From positions 72,286-136,285 of the forward strand of contig CAYOCH010000001.1 of the NCBI GenBank assembly GCA_964402535.1: DNA of 64,000 nucleotides. The letters are read 5' to 3'. Every line of letters begins with the position of its first letter. The stretch's first letter is position 1. Source of the stretch: an uncultured Candidatus Saccharibacteria bacterium (GTDB taxonomy: Bacteria; Patescibacteriota; Minisyncoccia; Phycocordibacterales; Phycocordibacteraceae). The notes under the pieces are model-generated. The model did no database searches, was not told the origin of the DNA, and saw nothing but the letters and a program-made list of their open reading frames with translations. Below, in pieces: positions 4,832-34,162 of this stretch. The position numbers and the translations under genes are program-made.

Positions 4832-5950
4832 ATGTCTGAAGAGAAGAAAGTCGCTGCGCCTGCAGTGACCATCCATCTGACCGAGGGCCACCCGATGGCC
4901 GAGTTCGTCGACTCGATCCCGACGCCGCCCTCCTCGGGCGATCTCGTCGAGGGTTCGATCATCGCGATGAACCGCGGCCGCGTCTATGTCGACCTGCCGC
5001 CGTTCGGCACCGGCCTCATCTACGGCCGCGAGTACCTGAACGCCGCCGACGTGCTGCGCAAGGCGAACCCGGGCGACACGATCAGCGCCAAGGTCGTCGA
5101 CGCCGCCGGCCGCGACGGCTATATCGAGCTCTCGCTTAAGGAGGCTCGCCAGGCCGCGATCTGGGGCGAGGCCGAGGCCGCTATCCTCTCGGAGACGACC
5201 TACACGCTCACCGTCGACGAGGCGAACAAGGGCGGTCTCATCCTCTCGTGGCAAGGCATCCAGGGCTTCCTCCCTGCCTCGCAGCTCTCGAAGGAGCACT
5301 ACCCGCGCGTGCCGGAGGGCGATAAGGAGAAGATCCTCGGCGAGCTCATGCAGCTTGTCGGCCATCCGCTTTCAGTGCGCATCATCACCGCCGACGCAAA
5401 GGAGGGCAAGCTTATCTTCTCTGAGCGCACCGGCAACGAAGCCGAAGAGAAGGCATCGCTCATCGACAAGTACCAGGTCGGCGACACGGCCGAAGGCGAA
5501 GTGACTGGCATCGTGGACTTCGGCGTGTTCGTCAAACTCGAGCCGGGTCTCGAGGGCCTCGTGCACATCAGCGAGCTCGACTGGGGCCTCGTCGAAGATC
5601 CGCATGCGCTCTTCAAGGTCGGCGACAAGGTGCGCGTCAAGGTGATCGAGATCAAGGACGGCAAGATCTCCCTCTCGGTCAAGGCGCTCAAGGAGAACCC
5701 GTGGCACACCGCGGCCGACCGCTACACCAAGGGCCAGCAGGTGCCGGGCGTGATCATCAAGTACAACAAGCATGGCGCGCTCGCCTCGATCGAAGAGGGT
5801 GTGGCCGGCCTCGTGCACGTCTCAGAGTTCGAGTCGCCGCAGGCGCTTCGCGAGACGCTCGAGCTCGGCAAGACGTATCCGTTCGTCATCTCGCTCTTCG
5901 AGCCCAAGGATCAGCGCATGACGCTCACCTTCGCGGGCAAGGCGAAGTAG
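4832..5950 (+). CDS. rpsA: 30S ribosomal protein S1-like (multiple S1 domains)
   Basis: 372 aa with repeated S1 OB-fold signatures (GxVxGxVxxIxDFGVFVKL, GLVHISEL). Confidence 0.8.
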   Translation: MSEEKKVAAPAVTIHLTEGHPMAEFVDSIPTPPSSGDLVEGSIIAMNRGRVYVDLPPFGTGLIYGREYLNAADVLRKANPGDTISAKVVDAAGRDGYIELSLKEARQAAIWGEAEAAILSETTYTLTVDEANKGGLILSWQGIQGFLPASQLSKEHYPRVPEGDKEKILGELMQLVGHPLSVRIITADAKEGKLIFSERTGNEAEEKASLIDKYQVGDTAEGEVTGIVDFGVFVKLEPGLEGLVHISELDWGLVEDPHALFKVGDKVRVKVIEIKDGKISLSVKALKENPWHTAADRYTKGQQVPGVIIKYNKHGALASIEEGVAGLVHVSEFESPQALRETLELGKTYPFVISLFEPKDQRMTLTFAGKAK

Positions 5951-11787: not shown

Positions 11788-13053
11788 ATGTCCAAGCGCA
11801 TTGAACCCGAGATCGAGACGTTCGCCCGCATCCGCGTGGTCGGCGTCGGCGGTTCAGGCGGCAACGCAGTGAATCACATGATCAACTCGAAGGTGCGGAA
11901 CGTCGAGTTCATCGCGGTCAACTCGGATGCGCAGGACCTGCACCGCAGTCTCGCCAAGCGCAAGCTCCATATCGGCAAGAACCTCACCCGCGGTCTCGGC
12001 ACGGGCATGAACCCGGAGCTCGGCCGTCGCGCTGCGGAGGAGACGCGCCAGGAGATCCAAGAGGCGCTCTCGGGGAGCGACATGGTCTTCATCACCTGCG
12101 GCATGGGCGGCGGCACCGGCACCGGCGCATCGGCGATCGTCGCGAAGATCGCCAAGGAGGTCGGCGCGCTCGTGATCGCCGTCGTCACGAAGCCGTTCGC
12201 CTTTGAGGGCGCGCACCGCAAGGACATCGCCGAGCGCGGCCTCGCAGAGCTCAAGAAGGAGGTGGACGCGTTCATCGTGATCCCCAACGACAAGCTCCTC
12301 TCGGTCGTCGACACGCAGACCTCGGCCAAGAACGCGTTCGCGATGTGCGACGAGATCCTGCGCCAGGCGGTCGAGGGCGTCTCGGACATCATCACCACAC
12401 CAGGCGAGATCAACACCGACTTCAACGATATCAAGGCGATCATGGAGGGCGCAGGCCCTGCGCTCATGGGCATCGGCGTCTCAGAGGGCGACGGCCGCGC
12501 CAAGGACGCTGCGCAGCAGGCGGTAAACTCGCCGCTCCTCGACGTCTCGATCAGCGGCGCGAAGGGCATCCTCTTCGTCGTCGCCGGCTCGGACGACCTC
12601 GGCATCATGGAGGTGCAGGAGGCGGCTAAGGTGATCAACGAGTCTGTCGACAAGAACGCCAAGATCATCTTCGGCATGATGCGCGACGAGAAACTCAAGA
12701 AGGGCCAGATCCGCATCATCGTCATCGCGACCGGCTTCCCCGATACCTCGCCGGCGGTACACCTCGGCCCCGAGCGCTCGCTCTTTGCGATGCCGACCGA
12801 GCGGCGCGACGAGGAGCGCGGCCGTATCTACCATGAAATATTGAAGCGCGAAGAGAAGCAGGCCGAGGAGAAGCCGAAGAAGCGCGCGCAGGATGAGGAA
12901 AAGGACAAGGAGATCCACTCCCCGATCGTCGTCGAGAAGGAGGAGCCGGTCGTGACGGCACAGCCGCACAAGCGCGAAGAGGTCGCGCCGGTCCCCGAGG
13001 ACGACGAGGCGTGGGGTGCGATTCCGGCCTTCTTGAGACGGCATAAGAAGTAA
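11788..13053 (+). CDS. ftsZ: cell division protein FtsZ
   Basis: IRVVGVGGSGGNAVNHM, TCGMGGGTGTGA tubulin signature; start set at MSKRIEP. Confidence 0.92.
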   Translation: MSKRIEPEIETFARIRVVGVGGSGGNAVNHMINSKVRNVEFIAVNSDAQDLHRSLAKRKLHIGKNLTRGLGTGMNPELGRRAAEETRQEIQEALSGSDMVFITCGMGGGTGTGASAIVAKIAKEVGALVIAVVTKPFAFEGAHRKDIAERGLAELKKEVDAFIVIPNDKLLSVVDTQTSAKNAFAMCDEILRQAVEGVSDIITTPGEINTDFNDIKAIMEGAGPALMGIGVSEGDGRAKDAAQQAVNSPLLDVSISGAKGILFVVAGSDDLGIMEVQEAAKVINESVDKNAKIIFGMMRDEKLKKGQIRIIVIATGFPDTSPAVHLGPERSLFAMPTERRDEERGRIYHEILKREEKQAEEKPKKRAQDEEKDKEIHSPIVVEKEEPVVTAQPHKREEVAPVPEDDEAWGAIPAFLRRHKK

Positions 13054-13061
13054 GAGTAAGA

Positions 13062-13090
13062 AACGCGGCGCCTCCGGCGCCGCGTTTTGT
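13062..13090 (+). terminator. intrinsic terminator after ftsZ
   Basis: aacgcggcgcc-tcc-ggcgccgcgtt plus tttgtt; same core as the rpsA terminator. Confidence 0.7.
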
Positions 13091-13102
13091 TATACTGCGC
13101 CT

Positions 13103-14026
13103 ATGCAAGACCTCATCATCATCGGCGGCGGGCCCGCCGGCATAGCAGCCGCTATCTACGCCGCCCGCAAACGGCTCGCGACCACGCTCATCGCCGAGGA
13201 GATCGGCGGACAATCGACCGTCTCCGAGGGCATCGAGAATTGGGTCGGCACGCCGAAGGTCTCGGGCAGCGACCTCGCGAAGCAGTTCAAGTCGCACCTC
13301 GAGGCGGTGAAGGGCGAGCAGGTCACGCTCGCGCTCGGCGAGCGCGTGACCGCCCTCGAGCAGATCCCCGAGAGCTTCACGGTCACCACGAAGTCGGGCA
13401 AGACGTTCTCGGCGAAGGCGGTCCTCGTCGCCTCCGGCGCCGGACGCCGCAAGCTCGAGGTGCCGGGAGCGGACAAGTTCGAGAACAAGGGCGTCACCTA
13501 CTGCGCCTCCTGCGACGGGCCGCTCTTCGCCGGCATGGACGTCGCGGTCGTGGGCGGCGGCAACGCGGGCTTCGAGACCGCGCTCCAGCTCCTCGCCTAT
13601 GCGAAGTCGGTCGTGCTCATCCACCGCCACAAAGCGTTCAAGGCGGACGCGGTGACGGTCGAGAAGGCCGCGGCGCACCCCAATATGCGCATCATCGCGG
13701 ACGCCGAGCCGGTCGAGGTCGTCGGCGACCAGTTCGTCACCGGCCTCAAGTATCGGGACAACGCGGCCGGCACCGTGCACGAGCTCCCCGTCTCGGGCGT
13801 GTTCGTCGAGGCGGGCGTGATCCCCAACACGGACTTCGCCGCCACGCTCCTCGAGCTCGATCAGGTGAAGCGCATCAAGGCCGACCCGCGCAATCAGCGC
13901 ACCTCGGTCGAGGGCGTGTGGGCCGCCGGTGACGCGACCGACGAGCTCTACCATCAGAACAATATCGCGGCCGGCGACGGCGTGAAGGCGCTCGAGGACA
14001 TCTACCTCTGGGTCAAGACGCAATGA
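13103..14026 (+). CDS. trxB: thioredoxin-disulfide reductase
   Basis: IIGGGPAGIAAAIYAAR FAD motif and CASCDGPLF redox-active disulfide. Confidence 0.9.
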   Translation: MQDLIIIGGGPAGIAAAIYAARKRLATTLIAEEIGGQSTVSEGIENWVGTPKVSGSDLAKQFKSHLEAVKGEQVTLALGERVTALEQIPESFTVTTKSGKTFSAKAVLVASGAGRRKLEVPGADKFENKGVTYCASCDGPLFAGMDVAVVGGGNAGFETALQLLAYAKSVVLIHRHKAFKADAVTVEKAAAHPNMRIIADAEPVEVVGDQFVTGLKYRDNAAGTVHELPVSGVFVEAGVIPNTDFAATLLELDQVKRIKADPRNQRTSVEGVWAAGDATDELYHQNNIAAGDGVKALEDIYLWVKTQ

Positions 14027-14760
14027 ACACCGCCGAACCCGTCTTCTCCGTCATCATCCCCACCTTGCGCGAAGCGCAGTTCCTCGAAGCGACGCTTGCA
14101 CAGTTTGCGAGCGTCACGATCCCCCACGAGATCATCATCACCGACGGCGGGAGCAAGGATACGACGCTTGATATCGCGCACCGCTACACCGACAAAGTGA
14201 CGGTCTGGGCAGAACCGCGCCGACAGACCTTCGGCGAGGCCAAGAACGCCGGCGCGGCGCTCGCGAAGGGCCGCTACCTCGTCTTCATCGACGCGGACGT
14301 GCATATCCCCGCACCCCAAGCCTTCTTTACCGAGATGATCGCCGCGTTCGAAAAGGACGCGAAGCTGGCGGGCATGACAGTACCGCTTAAGCCCTGGGCA
14401 GACAATCACTCGTTCGTCGACCACTTCTTCTGCGCACCCTTGAACTGGTTCTACGTCGTCTCGAACAACGTCTTCAACTCCGGCAACTCCTCGGGCGAGT
14501 TCCAGATGGTTCGCGCCGATACGTTCAAGAAGATGGGCGGCTTCGCAGAACATCTCGCTGCAGGAGAAGACAACGACCTCTTCCGCCGGCTCGCGGCGCA
14601 CGGCCGCACGCGCTCCTATGCCCGGCTCTTCGTCACCCACTCGCTTCGCCGCCCGCACAAGCTCGGGTGGCTGAAGACGTACTGGATCTGGATCAGCAAC
14701 GGTATCTCCGTCGCGCTCCGCGGCACAACGATCGTCAAAGAGTGGTCCGTGGTGCGATAG
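14023..14760 (+). CDS. glycosyltransferase family 2
   Basis: FSVIIPTLRE...TDGGSKDTT...FIDADV (GT-A DxD) pattern. Confidence 0.75.
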   Translation: MNTAEPVFSVIIPTLREAQFLEATLAQFASVTIPHEIIITDGGSKDTTLDIAHRYTDKVTVWAEPRRQTFGEAKNAGAALAKGRYLVFIDADVHIPAPQAFFTEMIAAFEKDAKLAGMTVPLKPWADNHSFVDHFFCAPLNWFYVVSNNVFNSGNSSGEFQMVRADTFKKMGGFAEHLAAGEDNDLFRRLAAHGRTRSYARLFVTHSLRRPHKLGWLKTYWIWISNGISVALRGTTIVKEWSVVR

Positions 14761-14881
14761 CGAGTATCTACGGGGTATTTTGAGTATATTGACTTTTTGC
14801 TCTGTTTAGTGCTATTATAGAAACAGGGTAACCGTTCCAATCAACAGCCGCTTGCGGCTATAACTCGTGTAGGAGGTTCAG

Positions 14882-15595
14882 GTGAGTCTTGGACTATGGA
14901 TCATAACGGGCAGCGTGCTGCTCGTCGCGTCTGAGGCGATCGTCTCGTACTTCTGCGAAGAGAACTTCTTCCCGTCGCAGATCTCGAAAAAGTGGGCGAT
15001 GAACGGCATCCCGTTCGCGTACCACGGCGGCGTTTGGAGCGACGTCCTGCTCTTGCCGCCGATGATGGCCTACATCGTCGGCAACTACGGCAGCAGCTGG
15101 ACGACAGAGGACGTGCTGAAGATGGGTGCGGCGGGCGTGGCAGTCACGCTCGCCAACCACATCCTCTTGATAACGACCCAGCCGATCCCGGACTCGTTCG
15201 GGTGGAAGAAGAACAAGTGGGACGCGGTCATCGCCTTCCACTTCGTCTACATGAGCGTCTACGTGGCGCTCGCGGGGCTCTTCTTCTTCTATTCGAAAGG
15301 CGTCTCGACCGCCGCCGCAGTGACCGTCGCGATCGTTCTCGGCATCCACACGGCGTTCGGCACGCACGTCCCGCTCGGGATGCTGCAGCGCCACAAGCGC
15401 TATATGTGGTGCCCGGACTTCCTCTCGAGCCCGCAGCTCCCATGGCTCTCGCTCGCGATCTGGACGACGCTTTCTATTCTCGCAGCAGCTGCTGCCGGCA
15501 TGGTGGCCGCTCTCCTGGTCGTTGCGATAGGCGCGTTCTTGGCTCTGTGGGTAGTAGCGTTCCTGATCGTCAGTCCGCCGGCGCTGCGCACCTAG
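14882..15595 (+). CDS. hypothetical integral membrane protein
   Basis: 237 aa, multiple TM helices, RBS GGAGG upstream. Confidence 0.45.
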   Translation: MSLGLWIITGSVLLVASEAIVSYFCEENFFPSQISKKWAMNGIPFAYHGGVWSDVLLLPPMMAYIVGNYGSSWTTEDVLKMGAAGVAVTLANHILLITTQPIPDSFGWKKNKWDAVIAFHFVYMSVYVALAGLFFFYSKGVSTAAAVTVAIVLGIHTAFGTHVPLGMLQRHKRYMWCPDFLSSPQLPWLSLAIWTTLSILAAAAAGMVAALLVVAIGAFLALWVVAFLIVSPPALRT

Positions 15596-16163: not shown

Positions 16164-17180
16164 TCAAGTGTTCTGCTTGATCGGGGCGAGCTGGGTCAAG
16201 AACGCATCGACAGAGTGCTCCCACGAATACCGCTCCGCCTTCGCGCGGCAATCGTCGCGCGAGAGGTCGAGGCATGAGAGTGCGCACGCGCGCAAGTCAT
16301 CGCCAAGATAGCCGTCCTTCCCTGCCGTGATGCTGTCCTTGGGGCCCATCACGTCGTGCGCGGCGACTGGGATGCCGCAGGCGAGGGCCTCGATCACGAC
16401 GAGCCCGAAGGTCTCGGTCCTTGAGGGGAAGACGAACGCGTCGGCGAGCGAGAGCCAGTCGACGAGCTCTTGGCCGCGCTTGTAGCCGACGAAGCGGTGC
16501 GTCGCGCCGTACTGCCGCTCCAACCGTGCGCGATCGGGACCGTCGCCGATCACGAGCTTGGTACCCGGGAGGTCGAGCTTCAAGAATTCTTCCGGGCTCT
16601 TCTCCGGCGCGAGCCGGCTGAAGTAGACAAACACCGGCTGCGGCACATCAGTCAAGGACGGTGTCGGGTTGCGCTTGAACAGCTCGAGATCGACCCCGAG
16701 CGGCACAACCGCGAGATTGCGATATCCCATCGACTCGAGCGTTCGCTTCAGCGTTTCGGTCGAGACGAATGTGCACGCGGCGGCGGCGTGGAACCGTCGC
16801 AAGTAGTAGAGCACCGGCGCGAGGAGGCCGCGTAGCCTGATATCGACATAGAGCTGCAGGTGCGTGTGGTACCAGGTCGTGAAGGGTATGCCGCGCCGTT
16901 TACAGACGCCCCGCGCCGCAAAGCCGAGCGGCCCCTCGGTCATGAGATGTATCGCGTCGGGGCGGAACTCGTCGATCACGCGAGCGATGCGGCGGCGCGA
17001 GGAGAGCGCGAGACGGATCTCGGGGTACATCGGGAGCGGGACGGTGCGAAACTGGGAGGGCTCGATCACTTTCACCTCATAGCCGCGCGCGCGGAGCCGT
17101 TCGAGATACGCGTCTTGTACTCGCACGACGCCGTTCACTTGGGGCGCCCACGCATCGGTCACGAACAGTATCTTCTTCAT
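16164..17180 (-). CDS. glycosyltransferase family 4
   Basis: MKKILFVTDAWAPQVNGVV...EALACGIPV GT-B/GT4 pattern; start trimmed to the ATG that overlaps (ATGA) the stop of the upstream DedA gene. Confidence 0.75.
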   Translation of the reverse strand: MKKILFVTDAWAPQVNGVVRVQDAYLERLRARGYEVKVIEPSQFRTVPLPMYPEIRLALSSRRRIARVIDEFRPDAIHLMTEGPLGFAARGVCKRRGIPFTTWYHTHLQLYVDIRLRGLLAPVLYYLRRFHAAAACTFVSTETLKRTLESMGYRNLAVVPLGVDLELFKRNPTPSLTDVPQPVFVYFSRLAPEKSPEEFLKLDLPGTKLVIGDGPDRARLERQYGATHRFVGYKRGQELVDWLSLADAFVFPSRTETFGLVVIEALACGIPVAAHDVMGPKDSITAGKDGYLGDDLRACALSCLDLSRDDCRAKAERYSWEHSVDAFLTQLAPIKQNT

Positions 17181-17812
17181 AGCCCGAGCTCTTTGTCCGG
17201 CGGCATCCGTTCGATGTCCGCGTCCTTCTTGAGGAACTTCTTGCGCATGTAGAAGGTGAAGACGTAGTAGCCGGTGATCGCGATCGCAGCGATCGCGATG
17301 ATGTACTGCACGTTCTCGATCACGCGCGTCGCCGTCCCGCCGAAGCTCGCGCCGAGATAATAGCCGGCGACTAAGAGCGTTCCATACTGGAGCACCGCCA
17401 CAACGCTTCCCCACCCGAAGAATTTCGTGAGCGGCATCTTGACCATGCCGGCGACCACGATGAAAGCCGAAGCGATACCGTACGAGAGCTTGCCGACAAG
17501 CATCGTGACGGCCGGCCGCCGCGCCCATAGGAGCCGCACCTCTTTGAGGTGGCCGGCGGTGATGCCGAGTTTCTTTAGCATCTTGGCGGCAAAGCGCGTC
17601 CGCCCGCCGAAGTAGCCCGTCGCGTAGTAGACGCCGTCGAGCCCGACATCGCGGACGAAGAACAAGATGGCCAGGATCCAGAACTCGAAGAGCCCGGCAG
17701 CCGCCATCGTGCCGGCGATGAATGCGACGACCGGACCCTCGAGAAGCGAGAGCGGAATGAGGATCCAGTAGCGGTAGACGAGGATAAGGTGCGTTAATGA
17801 ATCGACTGACAT
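17177..17812 (-). CDS. DedA/VTT-domain membrane protein
   Basis: 211 aa, SNARE-associated DedA-like hydrophobic profile. Confidence 0.7.
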   Translation of the reverse strand: MSVDSLTHLILVYRYWILIPLSLLEGPVVAFIAGTMAAAGLFEFWILAILFFVRDVGLDGVYYATGYFGGRTRFAAKMLKKLGITAGHLKEVRLLWARRPAVTMLVGKLSYGIASAFIVVAGMVKMPLTKFFGWGSVVAVLQYGTLLVAGYYLGASFGGTATRVIENVQYIIAIAAIAITGYYVFTFYMRKKFLKKDADIERMPPDKELGL

Positions 17813-17859
17813 CGGTGAAAGTATACTCCCTGGTCGGGAGCGGGCTATACTGATAGTGC

Positions 17860-19260
17860 ATGAAGGTTCATCATTCCGTCGACTGGCAGGGACTCTCGTT
17901 CGTCGGCAAGGCCTTGCTCGCGCTCATGGTCGTCTCGGGCGGCATCTACTTCAGCCAGCTCTACGCGTCGAGCTCGCGCGCTTCGGGAGAGCCGAACATG
18001 GTACTGATCCAACAACAAGCATCGATCGCACGCGGCGGATCAACGCTCGCACTATCGACGACTACATCGAAACACATCATTAACACGCTCACGATCGCCG
18101 ACGCCGTCCCCGCCTCCGGAAAATTCATCACGGCCGACCTCGTGAACAACGTGCTCACGCTCTACGAAGACGGTTCGGCGACCGCGAAATATCCGATCCT
18201 CGCCGCGGGCGCGCCGAGCTCGCCCTATGCCGCACCCGAGGGCGTCTACGCAATTCAGTCAAAGAATCCGGATCGTTTCTTCTCCGCCGGGCTCGTGCAT
18301 CAGAAGTGGAGCGTGCAGTTCGCCGGCAACTACTCTATCCATGGCACGCCCTATCGCGAGGACGGTGCCGCTGTTGATGCCGATTATAAGAACGACTCGA
18401 TCGAGGTGAGCACGAGCGACGCCGAGCGCGTCTTCGACTTTGCCGACAAGGGCACCAGCGTGTTCGTCTACGACCCGATCGGCCACGGCGCCTCATCGCT
18501 CGTGCTCGACACGGTGCCGCAGCCATCTGTCACTGCCGCCTCCTACCTTGTCGCAGACGTCGACACGGGCGACGTCTTTGCCGAGCGAGCAGCTCAATCA
18601 GTACAGCCGATCGGCTCGACAGCGACGCTCCTCACGGCGCTCGCCGCAGACGAGACCGTCCCCTTCGACACGAATCTCTCGGTGTTGAAGAGCGACCTCT
18701 CCCCCACCGTTCGCACCAAGACGCGAGAACGTCTCACGGCCGGACAACTCATATATCCGCTCCTTATGAACGGCAGCGCGGCTGCGGCAACAAGTCTCGC
18801 GGAAGCGTCGCAGAGCGACCTCATCAGCTGGATAAACGCGCTTGCCGGCTCGCTCGACATGCCGAAAACGCGCATCTCGGACCTTATCGGCACCTCGACG
18901 GCCTCGGTGACCACGGCAGATGACCTCTTTCATCTCGCGGCCTATCTCGCCGCCAACAAGACATTCATCCTGAGCATCGCCAAGGCGCCGCAAGCGAGCG
19001 TGCTCGCCGACAGCGGCACGACCTACCGATTCACGAACACGGTCGCAACCGGCAGTTCACTCGTCTCGCTCGTCTCGGTGCCATTGAACGGCACGCTCCG
19101 TCGCGCGGCCGTCATCGTGCTCGGTTCAGACAACGCCGCTATCGATGCGAATGCGCTCGGCAACTGGTACGCACAGTCGACTCGCCAGGGCGCCGAGATG
19201 GCCGCGACCGCGTGCGTCACCTGCACGCCGGCGCCGGCCTATCGCAAGATCCAGCTCTAA
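17860..19260 (+). CDS. secreted peptidoglycan-related protein: L,D-transpeptidase-like plus D-Ala-D-Ala carboxypeptidase (S11)-like domains, catalytic motifs apparently degenerate
   Basis: YSIHGTPY (YkuD-like) but no catalytic Cys; S11-like segment PIGSTATLLTA (SxxK becomes STAT), NGS in place of SGN, ATG in place of KTG. Confidence 0.5.
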   Translation: MKVHHSVDWQGLSFVGKALLALMVVSGGIYFSQLYASSSRASGEPNMVLIQQQASIARGGSTLALSTTTSKHIINTLTIADAVPASGKFITADLVNNVLTLYEDGSATAKYPILAAGAPSSPYAAPEGVYAIQSKNPDRFFSAGLVHQKWSVQFAGNYSIHGTPYREDGAAVDADYKNDSIEVSTSDAERVFDFADKGTSVFVYDPIGHGASSLVLDTVPQPSVTAASYLVADVDTGDVFAERAAQSVQPIGSTATLLTALAADETVPFDTNLSVLKSDLSPTVRTKTRERLTAGQLIYPLLMNGSAAAATSLAEASQSDLISWINALAGSLDMPKTRISDLIGTSTASVTTADDLFHLAAYLAANKTFILSIAKAPQASVLADSGTTYRFTNTVATGSSLVSLVSVPLNGTLRRAAVIVLGSDNAAIDANALGNWYAQSTRQGAEMAATACVTCTPAPAYRKIQL

Positions 19261-19263
19261 CTG

Positions 19264-19746
19264 CTAGTCAGAGGTGAACGAACGGCTCGTGAGGAGCGAA
19301 TAACCCTGATAGGCACTGTCGCGCACGCGGCGCGTATCGTAGTAGACGCCGATCGTATAACTCCCCGCGGGGATCGGGGTCGTGACCGTGTAGCTAAACC
19401 ACTGCCGATAGTCGGTGCTCACCTCGCCGCCGACGCCCGAGTCGCCCGATGCGACGACGCCCTTGATGGCTGCCGGATCATCCGGCTGCGCCGGTAATGC
19501 GGCATCGCCGGCCACGACGACGATCGTGAGATCGCCCGCATACATGTTCTCGAGCGTCCCGGAGATCGTCGGCGTCGCGGAGTCCGTGACGACGTCGACC
19601 GTCCCGCTCACTGTCCCGATCCCCGGCGGCGCGGACTTGGGCGCCGTCGCCGGCGCGATCGGCGACTTGATCACGCTGAAGAACCACGACCCGAGTACGG
19701 CCACGACGATGGCGATGACGGCGAGTACGACGATGTTCTTGCTCAT
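19264..19746 (-). CDS. hypothetical secreted/membrane-anchored protein
   Basis: 160 aa with N-terminal TM/signal segment. Confidence 0.45.
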   Translation of the reverse strand: MSKNIVVLAVIAIVVAVLGSWFFSVIKSPIAPATAPKSAPPGIGTVSGTVDVVTDSATPTISGTLENMYAGDLTIVVVAGDAALPAQPDDPAAIKGVVASGDSGVGGEVSTDYRQWFSYTVTTPIPAGSYTIGVYYDTRRVRDSAYQGYSLLTSRSFTSD

Positions 19747-19777
19747 GCCTTTGAATGATCTCTCCTATTATAACCTA

Positions 19778-19993
19778 GTGATGAAATTATACACTTTGCG
19801 CGAACCCACTTCGCACGCGCCGAGCGCGTGGTGACTCGGGACTAATGCGTACGCTCCGATCGCGCCTCGCCCGCGCTCGCGGACTCGCGCGGGCAAACCC
19901 AAAATTTCCTTGCATTTTCTCCTCGGCTCCTCCCCCGACCCCTCCGCCGAAAGGCGAAAAAGGATGGAAAGGAAATTTTTGGTTTGCGTCGCC
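19778..19993. repeat. IR1-L (~215 bp), perfect reverse complement of 22189-22403
   Basis: identical 70-80 aa spurious ORFs on opposite strands (19768-20010 minus and 22124-22408 plus); direct sequence comparison. Confidence 0.9.
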
Positions 19994-20197
19994 TTTTGAA
20001 AACTCCACAAGGGGCAACAAAGTATTCACATTGAAGCCCCTTGCTCCGTAATCAAAAGGCGACCCGAGGCGCAATACACAGCGGTCTGCGCTAGGGCGCA
20101 GTCAGTTTTGATATGTGCTTGGCCCACCCGCCCAGTCCGCGCACAACCAGCCCCGCCGTTTTAGGAAACATTATAAAACGGCGGGGCTGGCTCCCTA

Positions 20198-20548
20198 TCA
20201 GCCTGAATGAAAATCCGACTGTTTTTTATGTGCCCCCGTGTATTCTGGTAGCACTTTCTCAATTTTTCTTTTGTAAAACTTCCTTACAGAAACATCTTTC
20301 TGGAATAAAAAATGATCTTCCGTGAAAGTACCGTCTTTTTTCTTATACCTAAGGCCTATCAAAATGCAATCTTTCGCGCTGGTTGGTATTGAATATGTGA
20401 CATGGTCAAATACACCATCTTTTTGTCTCAATTTTATTCCATGTTTATTTAGAACTTTCAGAAAGATTTCTGCAGTTGGCTTTTCCAAGCTGCCACTGTA
20501 AATACTATCGGTGATATGTTTTATCTCACCATAAGAATCATCTTTCAT
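20198..20548 (-). CDS. hypothetical protein (island cargo, 116 aa)
   Basis: low-GC ORF, last gene of the minus-strand cargo operon. Confidence 0.45.
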   Translation of the reverse strand: MKDDSYGEIKHITDSIYSGSLEKPTAEIFLKVLNKHGIKLRQKDGVFDHVTYSIPTSAKDCILIGLRYKKKDGTFTEDHFLFQKDVSVRKFYKRKIEKVLPEYTGAHKKQSDFHSG

Positions 20549-20575
20549 AATTCTAAGCCAGACAATGACCGATCT

Positions 20576-20965
20576 TTAACTGACGGATTTTGAGGCTGTA
20601 TTACTTTCGTCTTTTTTTGAATCCCAAGGAAGTGTCTTAGAAAAAGCGATGAAATAAGCAATCACTGCCCACGCTGGTATAACAACATTCGGAAATGGAT
20701 CGTTGACCAGGTCAGCTCTCTTAGTAAGAACCGTCATTATAATAATGATTATTACGGCAATGAGCTCAAGAGTCTTTCTCAGTGTTGTTTCTTTCGCGAG
20801 ACCAAGTTTTCGCTTTTTAGCGGACATGTACGCAATTGAGCCAAGAACCATAAACCATCCCCCAACAAGTAAGCTGCCGTTGACTTGACCTGCTCCACCC
20901 AAAAGTGCGAAAAGCCCAAGCACTAAAGCCGCATAAGAACCCCAGAAATTTTTATAGTCTTTCAT
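20576..20965 (-). CDS. hypothetical membrane protein (island cargo, 129 aa, ~4 TM)
   Basis: hydrophobic profile; low GC. Confidence 0.45.
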   Translation of the reverse strand: MKDYKNFWGSYAALVLGLFALLGGAGQVNGSLLVGGWFMVLGSIAYMSAKKRKLGLAKETTLRKTLELIAVIIIIIMTVLTKRADLVNDPFPNVVIPAWAVIAYFIAFSKTLPWDSKKDESNTASKSVS

Positions 20966-20977
20966 ATATAAATTATT

Positions 20978-21889
20978 CTAAAAACAATTTATCGTTGCTA
21001 CTCCGCCTCCGGCAGACTGGACGGTGCAAGAAGTGGAGCGAGGAACCGCCACGGGTGCGGTAGACTGCGTGAGCGTGGAAGAATACATGTTGTAATCTGA
21101 GACAAACGATGCAGCAAATCCCTGGAATGCATTCAACACTGTGTAGGTATCGGTCGGTGTTTGGTAGTTTAGGAAATACGAAAGCGGTTGAGATTGTAAA
21201 TTTGCTAAATCTGACTGCGCCTTTTCAATGATTGACTTTGTAGGCGCTTGTTGATTCATGATGCGTGTGATTCGCAGATTCGTCAGATTTCGCAAAGCAA
21301 CCGCTACCTGACTGTTATTGTTTGCGAGCGCATTTAGCACACCATTCATGCTGTCTATATCAGACGTCTGAAGATTGTAGAGGTATGTATAGCTAGAAAT
21401 TATTTTGTTGAGGGTGCCGATAGCGTCATTTTTTACTAAAACAGCAGCGGACAAATCTTGTGTCTGGGTTTGTGTCTGATTTTGGACTGGCAGATTTTGG
21501 TTTTGCGCTTGTTGTGTTTTTGATTGGCAATATGCTTTCCCGCCATCCCCAGGACATACAAAATCACTTCCAGACGGACAGGAAGAATAGTAGGTGCCGT
21601 TACAAAGGGTAGAATTTTTTGGCACGGCGGCTTCTGTCTTCGTGGACACACTCTGGCCTTTGTTGGTCGGTACCGTTTGAGGAGAAATTTTTACATTTCC
21701 TGTCGTGCTAGTTGCAAGAGGCGAAACGTTATTTGGAGTGTTATTCGGAGTAAAGAAGGTTGACACCCGATTTGTAAAAGGAGAAAAGATATACCAAGAA
21801 AGCGGATTCCACCATGCTGCGAAAGCAACTTGTGGAATAACAAAGATCATTACAGCGCCGACTGCAAAAAGATTTTTATACCCTTTCAT
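20978..21889 (-). CDS. secreted S/T/N/Q-rich protein with Cys cluster (island cargo, 303 aa)
   Basis: signal peptide, CNGTYYSSCPSGSDFVCPGDGGKAYC cysteine cluster, QTQTQTQ low-complexity region. Confidence 0.5.
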   Translation of the reverse strand: MKGYKNLFAVGAVMIFVIPQVAFAAWWNPLSWYIFSPFTNRVSTFFTPNNTPNNVSPLATSTTGNVKISPQTVPTNKGQSVSTKTEAAVPKNSTLCNGTYYSSCPSGSDFVCPGDGGKAYCQSKTQQAQNQNLPVQNQTQTQTQDLSAAVLVKNDAIGTLNKIISSYTYLYNLQTSDIDSMNGVLNALANNNSQVAVALRNLTNLRITRIMNQQAPTKSIIEKAQSDLANLQSQPLSYFLNYQTPTDTYTVLNAFQGFAASFVSDYNMYSSTLTQSTAPVAVPRSTSCTVQSAGGGVATINCF

Positions 21890-21894
21890 GATTA

Positions 21895-22116
21895 TTATTT
21901 CAAAAAATAATTGATGTCTTTGTCGTAGAGCTTTGCGAATCGCTTGAGTTCCACGACATCGACCCTCTGCTGTCCCGATTCGACGTTCGAGATATGTGAC
22001 TGCGGCCGGCCAATCTTTTTGGCGACTTGCGTCTGGGTCAATCCGGCCTCAAGGCGAGCCGTCCGCAGTCTCTCGACAAAGACAGCATATTCCTTTGTTT
22101 GGATTGACTTCTTCAT
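21895..22116 (-). CDS. XRE-family helix-turn-helix transcriptional regulator
   Basis: LTQTQVAKKIGRPQSHISNVESGQQ HTH_3 pattern; first gene of the cargo operon. Confidence 0.7.
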   Translation of the reverse strand: MKKSIQTKEYAVFVERLRTARLEAGLTQTQVAKKIGRPQSHISNVESGQQRVDVVELKRFAKLYDKDINYFLK

Positions 22117-22188
22117 ATGGTAAATGGTCTATCTAAGAAGTCAATATCCAAAGTTTGGATATTCTCGTGCTAAGCTGAATAGGACCTC

Positions 22189-22403
22189 GGCGACGCAAAC
22201 CAAAAATTTCCTTTCCATCCTTTTTCGCCTTTCGGCGGAGGGGTCGGGGGAGGAGCCGAGGAGAAAATGCAAGGAAATTTTGGGTTTGCCCGCGCGAGTC
22301 CGCGAGCGCGGGCGAGGCGCGATCGGAGCGTACGCATTAGTCCCGAGTCACCACGCGCTCGGCGCGTGCGAAGTGGGTTCGCGCAAAGTGTATAATTTCA
22401 TCA
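22189..22403. repeat. IR1-R (~215 bp)
   Basis: reverse complement of 19778-19993. Confidence 0.9.
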
Positions 22404-22515
22404 CATAGTAAAACATCTGCCGGAGTGAGTGCGGCGGAGCCGCGCCGCGAAGCGGCGCGGGAAGGAGCGGCGGCGAATTGCGCCCTGCGGGCGCGGGCTA
22501 ATTCGGAGGGCGGGC
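22403..22515. repeat. IR2-L (~113 bp), reverse complement of 23993-24105
   Basis: direct sequence comparison; lies immediately upstream of the recombinase start. Confidence 0.9.
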
Positions 22516-22576
22516 AGGATGCAAGAAATGAAATCGGAAATGGTACTTGTCGGTTTTGAATCCAAAATCTATTTAT

Positions 22577-24166
22577 ATGTCGGCTAAACCAAAATATTTT
22601 CTCTACGCGCGCAAAAGCACCGAGGACGACGACAGGCAAGTGATGTCCATTGAGGCGCAACTTTTCGAGCTACGCGAGTATGCGCGCAGAGAAAATCTTG
22701 AAATTCTTGAGGAATTTCAAGAGTCGAAAAGCGCAAAGAGCCCGGGGCGGGATATTTTCGGCAGAATGATGATGCGCGTCGAGGGTATGCAGGGCGTCGG
22801 GATTTTAGCGTGGCATCCTGACCGATTGGCGAGAAATAGCATTGACGGCGGACGCATCATCTACGCCGTGGACACTTCGCGTATTGTCTCTTTGCGCTTT
22901 CCGACATTTTGGTTTGAGCCGACGCCGCAGGGGCTCTTTATGTTGCAAGTGGCGTTCGGCCAGTCGAAATATTACAGCGACAATCTCACACAGAACGTCG
23001 AACGAGGGTTCCGCCAAAAACTGCGCCGCGGCGAGTGGCTGACGCGCGCTCCCTTTGGCTATGTGAATAATCCGCGCACGCGGAATATCGAACCCGACCC
23101 CGTGAAGTCGCGGGTCGTGGTGCGCGCGTTCGAGGAGTACGCCAAAGGATTGCACACGCTGGTTTCGTTGGGGCAGTTTTTGGCGGAACACGGCGTTGTG
23201 ACCCGCGCCGGAACGCCACTTGGCAAAGCTTCCGTGGCGAGATTGCTTTCCAATCGCGCGTATCTCGGACTTACCAAACATCACGGCGAATTTTTCCCCG
23301 GAAGCTTTGCGCCAATTCTTTCTGCGCCACTGTTTGAAGCCGTCCAAAAGAAATTGCATGAGCGAGCGCGTCCCCGTCACAGCCGCGTCCGCCATGACTT
23401 TCCATTTACGGGTCTGTTTCGGTGCGGCGAGTGCGGTGCAATGATTACCGCACAGTGGACTACAGGTCGTCATGGCGGACGCTACCGCTACTACCGCTGT
23501 ACCAAAAAGAATGGCACGTGCGGTCAAGGATATTTGCAGGAGGACGCGCTCGTCATGCAGACAAAGGAACGGCTTCAAGCAGTGTCGCTCCCCGACGACT
23601 GGGCAGAGTACATGCTCGGCAAGGCCGAGGAATGGGACAAGGCGGACAAGCAGTCGTCGGGGAGCCATGCCGAGCGACTGAAATCCGAACTAAAGGAAAT
23701 CGAGCGAAAGCTTGATGCGCTCGTTGATTTGCACCTGAACGGCGATATTGAGCGCGCGAGGTATCTGGCGAAAAAGGACGCACTGATGCGCCTCAAGCTC
23801 TCGCTCGATACAAAATTATCAGCCGCCCGACACGGCAGAAAGAATTGGGTCGAACCCCTGCGGCAGTGGATTTTGGATTCAAAACGCGCGGGGTTTCTGG
23901 CTTCCAGTACAAACTACGCGGAAATCCGCGAGTTTGTCCGTTCCTTCGGAACGAACCCCGCGATGCGCGACAAGACCATTTCGATTTCATTTTGCCCGCC
24001 CTCCGAATTAGCCCGCGCCCGCAGGGCGCAATTCGCCGCCGCTCCTTCCCGCGCCGCTTCGCGGCGCGGCTCCGCCGCACTCACTCCGGCAGATGTTTTA
24101 CTATGTGACCCCACGGGGAATCGAACCCCGATTTACGCCGTGAAAGGGCGCTGTCCTAACCGTTAG
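22577..24166 (+). CDS. large serine recombinase (resolvase/invertase N-domain plus recombinase and zinc-ribbon domains)
   Basis: YARKSTEDDD...SIEAQ catalytic Ser region, CGECGAMITAQW...YRCTKKNGTCGQ zinc ribbon; ORF C-terminus reads through IR2-R into the tRNA-Glu gene, so the true C-terminus is uncertain. Confidence 0.85.
   Translation: MSAKPKYFLYARKSTEDDDRQVMSIEAQLFELREYARRENLEILEEFQESKSAKSPGRDIFGRMMMRVEGMQGVGILAWHPDRLARNSIDGGRIIYAVDTSRIVSLRFPTFWFEPTPQGLFMLQVAFGQSKYYSDNLTQNVERGFRQKLRRGEWLTRAPFGYVNNPRTRNIEPDPVKSRVVVRAFEEYAKGLHTLVSLGQFLAEHGVVTRAGTPLGKASVARLLSNRAYLGLTKHHGEFFPGSFAPILSAPLFEAVQKKLHERARPRHSRVRHDFPFTGLFRCGECGAMITAQWTTGRHGGRYRYYRCTKKNGTCGQGYLQEDALVMQTKERLQAVSLPDDWAEYMLGKAEEWDKADKQSSGSHAERLKSELKEIERKLDALVDLHLNGDIERARYLAKKDALMRLKLSLDTKLSAARHGRKNWVEPLRQWILDSKRAGFLASSTNYAEIREFVRSFGTNPAMRDKTISISFCPPSELARARRAQFAAAPSRAASRRGSAALTPADVLLCDPTGNRTPIYAVKGRCPNR
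23993..24105. repeat. IR2-R (~113 bp)
   Basis: reverse complement of 22403-22515; ends exactly at the tRNA-Glu 3' terminus. Confidence 0.9.
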
Positions 24167-24177
24167 ACGATAGGGCC
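24106..24177 (-). tRNA. tRNA-Glu (anticodon TTC)
   Basis: cloverleaf by eye: acceptor GGCCCTA/TGGGGTC (two G-U pairs), anticodon loop CTTTCAC, T-arm CGGGGTTCGATTCCCCG; CCA not encoded. Confidence 0.8.
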
Positions 24178-24232
24178 TCACTACACGCGAATCCTAGCAT
24201 TTTCGGCCTCAAATGCTAGAATCTCGGCACAC

Positions 24233-24320
<88 letters not shown>

Positions 24321-24434
24321 ATCAGATTTTTCCACAGATGACGAAATAATGAATTGTGATAAGGTGTAGAGACAAAAGGACCAGAGATGGCCGCTTTTGT
24401 TTTTTGTTCTTTCACCAATCAGTGTACGGGAGTA

Positions 24435-24611
24435 GACATGCTGGACAATATCGCAGTTAACAACCTTGCGCGGCCGCTTCAACAAGAGGTGGAGACCGCA
24501 CAAGCTGCAGCAGCAGAAGCCGCGCGTCGTGCGCACGACCCGCGGTATAGCCACGAGCCGTTCGGCTGGGCTCGCGTCATGCTCGAAGAAGGCCTGACGC
24601 CCCGTCCATAA
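24435..24611 (+). CDS. hypothetical small protein (58 aa)
   Basis: GGGAG RBS before ATG 24435; hairpin plus T-rich tract downstream; no family match. Confidence 0.3.
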   Translation, partial: DMLDNIAVNNLARPLQQEVETAQAAAAEAARRAHDPRYSHEPFGWARVMLEEGLTPRP

Positions 24612-24702
24612 TCGGATTGGATCACGAAAGCGCATCCCTCGCGGGGTGCGCTTTCCTTATCGTTATTCCTGCGGCATGAAGATTGTGGTATAGTCGCACC
24701 AC

Positions 24703-24775
24703 GCGCGGTTAGCTCAGTTGGTAGAGCACTTCCTTGACGTGGATGGGGTCATAGGTTCGAATCCTATACCGCGCA
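24703..24775 (+). tRNA. tRNA-Val (anticodon GAC)
   Basis: GCGCGGT/ACCGCGC acceptor, anticodon loop TTGACGT, closely resembles E. coli valV. Confidence 0.8.
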
Positions 24776-24778
24776 CCC

Positions 24779-25549
24779 ATGGGTCCGAAGCGCCACAGCC
24801 CCAAGCAGGGCAAAGTGTATATATACGGCAAGCATGCGCTCATAGAGGCGCTCATGAACGCGCCTCAGGTGGTGCGCAAGGTCTTTCTCGCGTCGACCGT
24901 CCGTGACCGTGACCTGCTCTCACTCATCGAGAAGCACGCGACCCCCGTCTCTCCGCTCTCGACGGGACGCGGCAAAGAGATCGTCGGCAAGGACACGGCG
25001 CACCAGGGCGTCATCGCGACGATGGATCCCGCTGCCCTTCTCCTCTCGCTTGATGACTTCATCGCGAAGCTTGACCTGTCCAAGAATCCGGCCATCGCCG
25101 TACTCGGCGAGGTGCAGGATCCGCACAACGTCGGCGCGATCATCCGCTCAGCAGCCGCCTTCGGCCTCGCGGGCGTGCTCATCCCCGAGCACCACCAGGC
25201 CGGCATCACGGGCGCGGTCGTGAAGACCTCTGCCGGGATGGCCTTCCGCGTGCCGCTCGTCTCGATCGGTAATGTGAACGCGACCCTCGCCGCGCTCAAG
25301 AAGAAAGGCTTCTGGGTCTACGGCCTTGCGATGGCGGGCACCGCGCAGCTCGGCACGGACGTCTTCAACGCTCCGGTCGCATTCGTGGTCGGCAACGAAG
25401 GCTCCGGTATCCGCGAGAAGACGCTCGAGGCCTGCGACGTCACGCTCTCGATCCCGATGCACCCGCGCACCGAGTCGCTCAATGCTGCGGTCTCTGCTGC
25501 GGTCGTCTTTTACGAATGGTCGAAGAAGCACCCTGAATTCTTGGTATGA
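24779..25549 (+). CDS. TrmH/SpoU-family RNA 2'-O-methyltransferase (RlmB-like)
   Basis: VYGKHALIEAL N-terminus and SpoU methylase core (GEVQDPHNVGAIIRSAAAFG, FVVGNEGSGI). Confidence 0.8.
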   Translation: MGPKRHSPKQGKVYIYGKHALIEALMNAPQVVRKVFLASTVRDRDLLSLIEKHATPVSPLSTGRGKEIVGKDTAHQGVIATMDPAALLLSLDDFIAKLDLSKNPAIAVLGEVQDPHNVGAIIRSAAAFGLAGVLIPEHHQAGITGAVVKTSAGMAFRVPLVSIGNVNATLAALKKKGFWVYGLAMAGTAQLGTDVFNAPVAFVVGNEGSGIREKTLEACDVTLSIPMHPRTESLNAAVSAAVVFYEWSKKHPEFLV

Positions 25550-33985: not shown

Positions 33986-34011
33986 GTGCCTTCATGATAG
34001 CACCTGCAAGT

Positions 34012-34083
34012 GCCCTTGGTAGGAATCGAACCTACATCGCCTCGTTAGGAGTGAGGTGCTCTATCCATTGAGCTACAAGGGCA
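34012..34083 (-). tRNA. tRNA-Arg (anticodon CCT)
   Basis: GCCCTTG/CAAGGGC acceptor, anticodon loop CTCCTAA. Confidence 0.75.
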
Positions 34084-34162
34084 GGTAAGTGGAGGGTAAC
34101 ACAAAACGCGCCCCGTGAGATGGCGGCTTCGCCTATCTCACGGGGCGCGTTTTGCGTGCTCC

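Follow-up and report, generated by a model that had tools for sequence, protein, structure and literature searches.

The 64,000-nucleotide (nt) stretch analyzed here (the window; positions 72,286 to 136,285 of contig CAYOCH010000001.1, from an uncultured Candidatus Saccharibacteria bacterium) probably contains, at positions 19778–24108, a 4.3-kb integrative element driven by a large serine recombinase (LSR). The element appears to belong to a large Patescibacteria-specific family, to be inserted exactly at the 3′ end of a tRNA-Glu gene, and to owe its long inverted repeats to duplication of the two arms of its attachment site, attP. From left to right, the order is host DNA, arm A, a cargo operon, arm A′, arm B, the LSR gene, arm B′, and the tRNA. 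This layout is common to well over a hundred Patescibacteria relatives and has apparently gone undescribed so far; a full-text literature search found no description of an arrangement attL, cargo, inverted attP, LSR, attR.

Two Abutting Inverted Repeats and Three Junctions with One Core

Self-BLAST of the whole window reveals two long repeats only, both of them inverted pairs. The first, IR-A, matches 19778–19993 to the exact reverse complement of 22189–22404. It comprises 216 nt at 100% identity, 2195 nt apart, as found by a repeat search of 17000–25000 and by direct string comparison, and the identity ends abruptly at the outer and inner edges alike. A perfect match of this length cannot arise by chance. 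A preliminary description of this DNA had reported a perfect inverted repeat of more than 200 bp, which is borne out with its right end at 22404 rather than 22403; the two mirrored spurious open reading frames (ORFs) that it mentioned are also present, at 19768–20010 on the minus strand and at 22124–22408 on the plus strand. The same account placed the repeat in an otherwise unique region, which is only partly right, as it overlooked a second inverted pair. This pair, IR-B, joins 22401–22524 to 23985–24108, with 116 nt perfect, and extends with insertions and deletions to about 22546 and 23963 (repeat search and self-BLAST). IR-B brackets the LSR gene and opens at 22401, sharing the four bases TCAC with the end of A′.

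These four bases, GTGA on the other strand, form the core of three junctions. At J1, on the left, host DNA meets arm A in ...CCTATTATAACCTA GTGA TGAAATTATACAC...; at J2, where A′ meets B, the reverse complement reads ...GATGTTTTACTAT GTGA TGAAATTATACAC... and leads from B′ sequence into A sequence; and at J3, on the right, B′ meets the tRNA in ...GATGTTTTACTAT GTGA CCCCACGGGGAATCG.... J2 therefore shares its left half with J3 and its right half with J1. Site-specific integration into a target composed of host DNA, GTGA, and tRNA relates attP to attR and attL in just this way. From this relation, the element would sit exactly at the 3′ end of tRNA-Glu(UUC), which is convergent with the LSR gene and overlaps the outer end of B′ by 4 nt, and would keep a whole, inverted attP inside. 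With attP thus duplicated within the element, IR-A would be the P′ arm present twice and IR-B the P arm present twice. The empty junction of this genome would presumably read ...CCTATTATAACCTA GTGA CCCCACGGGG....

Base-by-base comparison identifies the same three-junction relation in 11 further complete loci with unrelated flanks, in which the cores are 3–7 nt long and end in GTGA, GTGG, or GCGG. In the window and in these 11 loci alike, attL and attR each join half of attP to half of attB, in reciprocal fashion, and have only a short core in common.

The Attachment Site and the Layout Are Conserved among Relatives

A search with the LSR finds thousands of relatives in metagenome-assembled genomes of the Patescibacteria, or Candidate Phyla Radiation (CPR), the best 120 at 64%–92% identity. 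The family set used here comprises 162 loci: 80 genome loci, 80 metagenome loci, locus L081, and the window. IR-B, at 115–150 nt, surrounds the LSR gene in 141 of the 162. In 101 of the 115 loci whose B′ is complete and whose downstream sequence is present, a convergent tRNA or transfer-messenger RNA (tmRNA) gene abuts B′, usually with the same 4-nt overlap. The integration targets include Glu (47), Ser (15), Ala (11), and Arg (11), among others. Where the upstream DNA suffices, an A-type repeat of 140–330 nt brackets a cargo of 2.1–8.9 kb and abuts B. The complete series from A to B′ is present in at least 22 loci, one of which, L054, comes from a 995-kb record of a complete chromosome (CP060229.1).

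A consensus of the sites was derived from 101 loci anchored where J2 and J3 diverge. For the attP-like J2, it reads gAaGTttc..TtTGTGa and then, past the point of divergence, tgaaaT..TaaccTTtGCgCGAACtTaTTTcgAA (the right half is elsewhere given as ..TaaccTTtGCgCGAAC). For J3, corresponding to attR, it consists of the left half of J2 followed by ccc.ac.gGGAaTCGAACC, the acceptor and T arm of a tRNA. The J2 of the window, CAGATGTTTTACTAT GTGA TGAAATTATACACTTTGCGCGAAC in reverse complement, fits this consensus. Two half-sites are conserved at the joint of A′ and B across the 101 loci, “b” (GAAGTTTC) and “a” (CCTTTGCGCGAAC), and the first ∼40 nt of arm A (GTGA TGAAATTATACACTTTGCGCGAAC...) fit the family-wide “a” half-site. 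A CGAAC motif lies 6 nt farther from the crossover in “a” than in the tRNA half-site, where it forms part of TCGAAC. In structures of LSRs bound to DNA, the zinc-ribbon domain contacts attP half-sites ∼5 bp farther out than attB half-sites. By analogy, the offset would fit “a” being a P-type and the tRNA side a B-type half-site.

Several loci depart from the common plan. In L146 (1–4883), the A-type arms on the two sides of the LSR differ from each other. L150 contains a tandem pair of B-bracketed segments, and L161 has additional inverted repeats together with a degenerate, inverted piece of a recombinase gene downstream of the tRNA (12208–14954). In L034, L043, L050, L057, and L158, B′ abuts an apparent tmRNA 3′ end (GTGGAG ATGGGGG(G)AATCGAACCCCC GTGCAG...) instead of a tRNA.

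It is very improbable that the window holds two foldback elements side by side, a non-autonomous unit A-cargo-A′ and a unit B-LSR-B′ resembling an insertion sequence (IS), each ending in terminal inverted repeats of its own. A single attP × attB event fits both the common core and the hybrid relation of the three junctions, and the LSR unit nearly always has an A-type arm upstream and a tRNA downstream; among the relatives, no LSR unit was found to follow plain host DNA and no cargo unit to adjoin a tRNA. This is despite each unit being bounded by its own inverted repeat and despite L146, where the LSR unit lies between dissimilar A-type arms. The element also differs from an IS or a transposon with terminal inverted repeats in that its ends, A on the left and B′ on the right, are unrelated, each being repeated internally, with the crossover core alone shared.

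Perfectly identical arms, as in the window, are places where short-read assemblers break or guess, and the contigs of many relatives stop 50–300 bp upstream of the LSR, as expected from repeats that break short-read assembly. That the layout is itself an artifact, a contig chimeric or mis-joined through repeat collapse or an amplification chimera, is nonetheless scarcely credible. The same architecture occurs in more than 20 independent assemblies, including the complete chromosome record. Arm copies differ by 1%–10% in relatives, and in many of them identity falls to 90%–96% for IR-A and as low as 77% for IR-B, which indicates two real copies rather than a collapsed assembly; in the window, IR-B itself diverges at its inner end. 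Finally, independent Logan assemblies of two runs reproduce the host-to-A and cargo-to-A′ edges of the window, ending 30 nt into the repeat.

The Recombinase Frame Runs through the Crossover

The LSR contains the resolvase catalytic domain (PF00239, E = 4.6e-20), the Recombinase domain (PF07508), and the zinc ribbon (Zn_ribbon_recom, PF13408) that together characterize this type of element, all above the Pfam gathering cutoff, and its translation shows the expected serine within an N-terminal YARKST motif. It matches a PHROG integrase (E = 3e-74), and its best match in the PDB, over the N-terminal half, is an SPbeta-type integrase (E = 5e-8). The closest annotated phage and plasmid LSRs are 22%–29% identical. 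IMG/VR contains no relative, and an exact-protein look-up with either start codon returned no record.

The LSR ORF passes through B′ and the crossover in 124 of 126 loci. Its stop lies a median of 58 nt past the crossover, within the antisense strand of the tRNA, such that the last codons and the stop are supplied by the integration target. In the window, the integrated gene ends in ...CD-PTGNRTPIYAVKGRCPNR, and at a joint of B′ to A the A arm would supply ...CD-EIIHFARTHFARAERVVTRD instead. The chance of ∼41 stop-free codons is ∼1/3 per locus, by a rough estimate for ∼65%-GC sequence. The arm is variable and rich in indels, and the retention of an open frame through it in almost every locus suggests selection.

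The tRNA lies downstream of the LSR and convergent with it in essentially all loci, with one exception, L033. On this 2.7-kb contig, a tRNA-Glu 3′ end is followed by B and the start of the LSR (1037–1300), the LSR segment being reversed relative to all other loci; this is either a real flipped isomer or a minority path in the assembly graph.

Element-free Relatives and the tRNA-Glu Site

Two relatives, L167 and L168, hold the host gene order (GT4, PBP, ..., tRNA-Glu, tRNA-Ser, tRNA-Val, SpoU, methyltransferase, DHH, TsaD) without LSR or cargo. In L167, the tRNA-Glu 3′ end, which matches the window through the T arm, runs directly into a terminator-like hairpin of its own. This arrangement supports insertion of the element at the 3′ end of tRNA-Glu.

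L167 also contains a 15-nt copy of the tRNA-Glu 3′ end (GTGACCCCACGGGGA) at 4901–4915, ∼190 bp past the real end of the tRNA, and an inverted GGGGTCAC nearby at 5040–5047; these copies may be scars of earlier integrations. In addition, comparison of 19778–24320 of the window with the relatives reveals an inverted block, which spans the insertion site together with tRNA-Glu and tRNA-Ser. Host genes flank it on the PBP side and on the tRNA-Val/SpoU side, and relative to these it occurs either way round: one arrangement is common to the window and L167 and the other to L001 and L168, independently of the presence of an element. This looks like a recurrent chromosomal inversion.

Cargo Operon and Its Orientation

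The cargo comprises four genes, of which the first encodes an XRE-family regulator and the remaining three encode proteins without an informative family match (Table 1). Its GC content is 33%–48% (43%), as compared with 59% for the arm, 55% for the LSR gene, and ∼60%–62% for the host. The palindrome between the XRE start codon and A′ adjoins TTGACT, a −35-like hexamer, and together these are likely to be the operator and promoter of the cargo operon. The 303-aa protein, exactly, and the entire four-gene operon recur on an independent Logan contig, L084.

Table 1. Features of the element and its insertion site in the window
Feature	Coordinates	Strand	Description
J1, attL-type junction	19778–19781	.	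Core GTGA; host to the left, A arm to the right
IR-A distal arm (A)	19778–19993	+	216 nt; putative P′ arm of attP, duplicated; 100% match to reverse complement of 22189–22404
Cargo 3′ non-coding region	19994–20197	-	Hairpins at 19988–20063; terminator-like stem at ∼20148–20196 (self-match 20147–20190)
Cargo gene, 116 aa	20198–20548	-	No family match
Cargo gene, 129 aa	20576–20965	-	Hydrophobic, suggesting a membrane protein; weak DUF6609 match below Pfam cutoff
Cargo gene, 303 aa	20978–21889	-	Hydrophobic N terminus, possible signal peptide; no Pfam match
XRE-family helix-turn-helix (HTH) regulator, 73 aa	21895–22116	-	Pfam HTH_31/HTH_3; PHROGs transcriptional repressor/regulator; first cargo gene, divergent from LSR
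Palindrome AATATCCAAAGTTTGGATATT	22143–22163	.	Perfect; between XRE start codon and A′ arm; candidate operator
IR-A proximal arm (A′)	22189–22404	-	From repeat search, string comparison, and self-BLAST
J2, intact attP-like site, inverted	22380–22430	-	Core TCAC at 22401–22404, where A′ meets B
IR-B upstream arm (B)	22401–22546	+	116 nt perfect, then imperfect; GC-rich hairpins
LSR gene	22577–24166	+	529 aa from ATG at 22577; crosses B′ and core, stops in tRNA-Glu antisense strand
IR-B downstream arm (B′)	23963–24108	-	Putative P arm of attP, now within attR
J3, attR-type junction	24105–24108	.	Core GTGA; overlaps final 4 nt of tRNA-Glu call
tRNA-Glu(UUC)	24105–24177	-	Probable integration target, intact; ARAGORN; Rfam tRNA, 60.9 bits

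Among relatives, the cargo occurs in both orientations, with a strong bias. A small HTH gene is proximal to the LSR and divergent from it in 16 of the 22 complete loci as well as in the window, and cargo operons are mostly divergent from the LSR. L149 has the XRE gene at the distal end and a cargo co-directional with the LSR. The cargo of L081 is likewise co-directional; its genes are unrelated to those of the window, its LSR is 92% identical, and the non-coding region 3′ of the window's cargo (19994–20154) is 90%–96% conserved there, next to the LSR-proximal arm. The clearest pair is L140 and L141, from two metagenomes. These are 100% identical over A′, B, the LSR, and the tRNA and over a 1.9-kb cargo, which is reverse-complemented between identical arms such that the XRE gene adjoins A′ in L141 and lies at the far end in L140. 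This pair is suggestive of inversion, not proof of it.

The preliminary description had taken the DNA between the A arms for a candidate segment flippable by a recombinase, and had advised looking for the alternative orientation in related assemblies. That orientation is found (L140 versus L141; L149 and L081 versus most others), and the repeat, the adjoining recombinase, and the self-contained, low-GC, XRE-led operon all stand. The enzyme, however, is an LSR of the integrase type, the outer ends of the repeat correspond to att junctions of an integrated element, the repeat abuts IR-B, and the orientation is strongly biased. Nor is it obvious that inversion would matter relative to outside promoters, as had been supposed, since the cargo has a promoter-like region and an operator-like palindrome of its own.

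Taken further, the same idea would make IR-A a dedicated invertible switch, its main purpose being to let the LSR flip the cargo between the A arms for phase variation. In its favor, a recombinase gene adjoins an operon bracketed by inverted repeats, a conserved LSR half-site lies at the outer end of each arm, and both cargo orientations occur, including in the 100%-identical pair. We regard it as unlikely. The recombinase is not a small invertase, and LSRs of the phiC31 and Bxb1 type recombine attP × attB only, absent a partner factor. A site-specific flip needs ∼25–50 bp rather than 216 bp of identity; the ends of the arms are the att junctions of an inserted element; the bias in orientation holds family-wide; and the cargo's own promoter-like region and operator-like palindrome also speak against a switch. 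The orientation pattern as a whole fits rare inversion or insertion either way round rather than a freely flipping switch.

A further possibility is that the inverted “a” sites serve as a platform for cargo exchange, in which modules are swapped, either way round, on a constant LSR backbone. Cargo content and size do vary widely on a conserved backbone (2.1–8.9 kb), cargo GC is usually below that of the arms and the LSR, both orientations occur, and L081 combines similar arms and a 92%-identical LSR with unrelated cargo genes in the opposite orientation. We consider this quite unlikely nevertheless: no donor form, such as a cargo between two attB-type sites or a cargo-only circle, was seen among the relatives; junctions of “a” sequence with a tRNA number zero in about 160 loci, where no A arm is joined directly to a tRNA end; and the XRE gene keeps its place at the head of the cargo, making part of the cargo backbone.

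Predicted Free Form and Direction of Integration

Returning to the integrative element, its free form would be a small circle, A-cargo-A′-B-LSR-B′, closed by a joint of B′ to A. Such a circle would contain two inverted repeats of ∼340 bp, each bearing an attP and together dividing a cargo segment from an LSR segment, in a manner reminiscent of the yeast 2-micron plasmid. We infer that it is the only precursor consistent with LSR chemistry. Integration would proceed through the attP at the 3′ end of the LSR gene, leaving the regulatory unit of XRE, attP, and LSR whole. Between the long identical arms, the cargo could then invert from time to time, either through homologous recombination of the RecA type or through the LSR, and such inversion would account for both cargo orientations, with the XRE gene next to the LSR dominant.

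One contig resembles the predicted circle. L122 runs B-LSR-B′-A-cargo-XRE-A′ and breaks off after 58 nt of the second arm; it is as long as the predicted circle minus one arm. The two “a” half-sites of this lineage, a_x at the 3′ end of the LSR gene and a_y upstream of that gene, differ over ∼20 nt. The integrated relative L149 has a_x at its host junction, which suggests that integration makes use of the attP at the 3′ end of the LSR gene. An A-type arm also follows B′ in L146, L085, and L024/L097.

Other candidates were rejected. Two contigs of ∼4.35 kb, considered as circles, turned out to be ordinary integrated fragments. If the precursor were a single-stranded circle folded to present a duplex attP, as in CTX phage, a serine recombinase would cleave both strands and leave the chromosome with hairpin-capped ends, unlike the structure seen here. 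Dimers of a simple element, whether tandem or inverted, would duplicate the cargo or the LSR, and this is not seen.

A number of observations weigh against an integrative element with such a free form. Excision, circle, and inversion are predictions from assembled contigs. The B′/A joint is identical in sequence to the internal joint of A′ and B, and L085, L024, and L122 could thus be alternative paths through the assembly graph. Similarly, the difference between L140 and L141 may be an arbitrary choice of the assembler across a repeat of ∼230 bp. The host-side half of the presumed attB is unconserved in the 11 loci compared base by base. L167 is a distant relative (PBP ∼46% identical) with a different left flank, and the exact empty junction of this genome is unobserved; Logan contigs of the source samples contain no empty-site branch, but they break exactly at the repeats and so are uninformative on orientation and on an empty site. 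Searches of Pfam and PHROGs identify neither a replication gene nor a recombination directionality factor in the cargo, although such factors have no common signature. Lastly, a circle with two equivalent attP sites should integrate either way round, yet the LSR gene and the tRNA are convergent in essentially every locus. This fixed polarity needs extra assumptions, either selection against the other isomer or functionally different attP copies, and sequence differences between the copies occur only in the lineage of L149 and L122. As speculation, the orientation could be held by selection against an isomer in which tRNA read-through drives the LSR, by autoregulation at the retained attP, or by pairing of the arms that insulates against outside transcription.

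A bolder extension is that the nested repeats provide built-in control of both integration direction and LSR expression, with no separate directionality factor, and that, when free, the element is a 2-micron-like flip-flop circle bearing two attP sites. Since the LSR frame extends across the crossover and the gene has an identical attP arm on either side, integration, or inversion of the LSR segment, would then swap the C-terminal tail of the LSR between one derived from the tRNA and one derived from the A arm. It would also swap the region upstream of the LSR between XRE-attP and a highly transcribed tRNA. We think this rather unlikely; if true, a serine integrase element would thereby determine its state by a new mechanism.

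Comparison with Known Systems

The element most closely resembles LSR-driven elements and prophages such as phiC31, Bxb1, A118, SPbeta, and Tn4451 with its TnpX. The domain composition of Resolvase, Recombinase, and zinc ribbon is the same, a short core is shared, attL and attR are hybrids of attP and attB with no long direct repeats, and the crossover bounds the element precisely. However, we know of no LSR element that keeps an intact inverted attP when integrated, that carries identical arms of 120–330 bp (LSRs need ∼50 bp), or that has its recombinase between inverted copies of one attP arm.

The Hin, Gin, Cin, and Pin systems are similar in that a serine recombinase gene lies beside or inside a segment bracketed by inverted repeats, and in that the bracketed DNA occurs in both orientations, here among relatives. 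These are small invertases of ∼190 aa with a C-terminal HTH, in contrast to the 529 aa with Recombinase and zinc-ribbon domains encoded here; they act at sites of ∼26 bp with a Fis-dependent enhancer, and the segments they invert are not att junctions. The repeats described here are ∼5–10 times longer than Hin or Gin sites (216 nt, and 140–330 nt in relatives), and orientation is strongly biased.

The 2-micron circle of yeast, with its FLP recombinase, FRT sites, and 599-bp inverted repeats, offers a parallel to the predicted free form. In the 2-micron circle and in the predicted one, two long inverted repeats each bear a recombination site, one of the two unique segments encodes the recombinase, and flip-flop isomers are expected. 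FLP, however, is a tyrosine recombinase, and the 2-micron circle is an autonomously replicating, non-integrating eukaryotic plasmid, unlike the serine recombinase and predicted circle described here, for which no replication gene is identified.

In the myxophage Mx8 (intP/attP) and in Sulfolobus SSV1 (int), attP lies inside the gene of a tyrosine integrase. As in these, the crossover here falls inside the recombinase frame and integration alters the 3′ end of the gene, but the enzyme is a serine recombinase and exchanges only a short, poorly conserved tail. Finally, in the man-made systems for recombinase-mediated cassette exchange (RMCE) and MiMIC, inverted phiC31 attP sites flank a cargo for cassette exchange. 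The resemblance lies in a cargo held between two inverted LSR sites in either orientation; here, in contrast, no natural donor and acceptor pair was found.

Patescibacteria are abundant, have reduced genomes, and possess almost no characterized mobile elements. The LSR family, with thousands of matches and close relatives at many tRNA and tmRNA genes, looks like one of their commonest vehicles of gene delivery. The loci provide predicted attP/attB pairs for a deep, uncharacterized clade of integrases, of possible interest for genome engineering, and a natural test of whether att arms of more than ∼50 bp, or pairs of attL and attP, can serve as LSR substrates. The repeats also explain a recurrent breakpoint in Patescibacteria assemblies, and annotators should treat cargo orientation at such loci as unreliable in short-read assemblies.

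Further Observations

Arm A carries the conserved motifs AAACC(C/A)AAAATTTCCTT and holds internal hairpins. Alignment of 14 A arms with RNAalifold gives weak support for structure, the stems being conserved in sequence with little covariation, and an RNA gene inside the arm is not supported, given this weak signal; Rfam has zero matches in the A or B arms. At 19896–19987 (mirrored at 22195–22286), two motifs of ∼21 nt, GCAAACCCAAAATTTCCTTGC and GGAAAGGAAATTTTTGGTTTGC, are mutually inverted around a C-rich spacer of ∼45 nt. The spacer is found in either orientation among relatives (for example, in the window versus L140, L102, L133, and L054), which would fit a miniature invertible unit or a hairpin loop that has flipped.

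Elsewhere in the window, and unrelated to the element, a 57-nt imperfect palindrome (88%) at 34099–34157 lies just 3′ of tRNA-Arg(CCT) (34010–34082).

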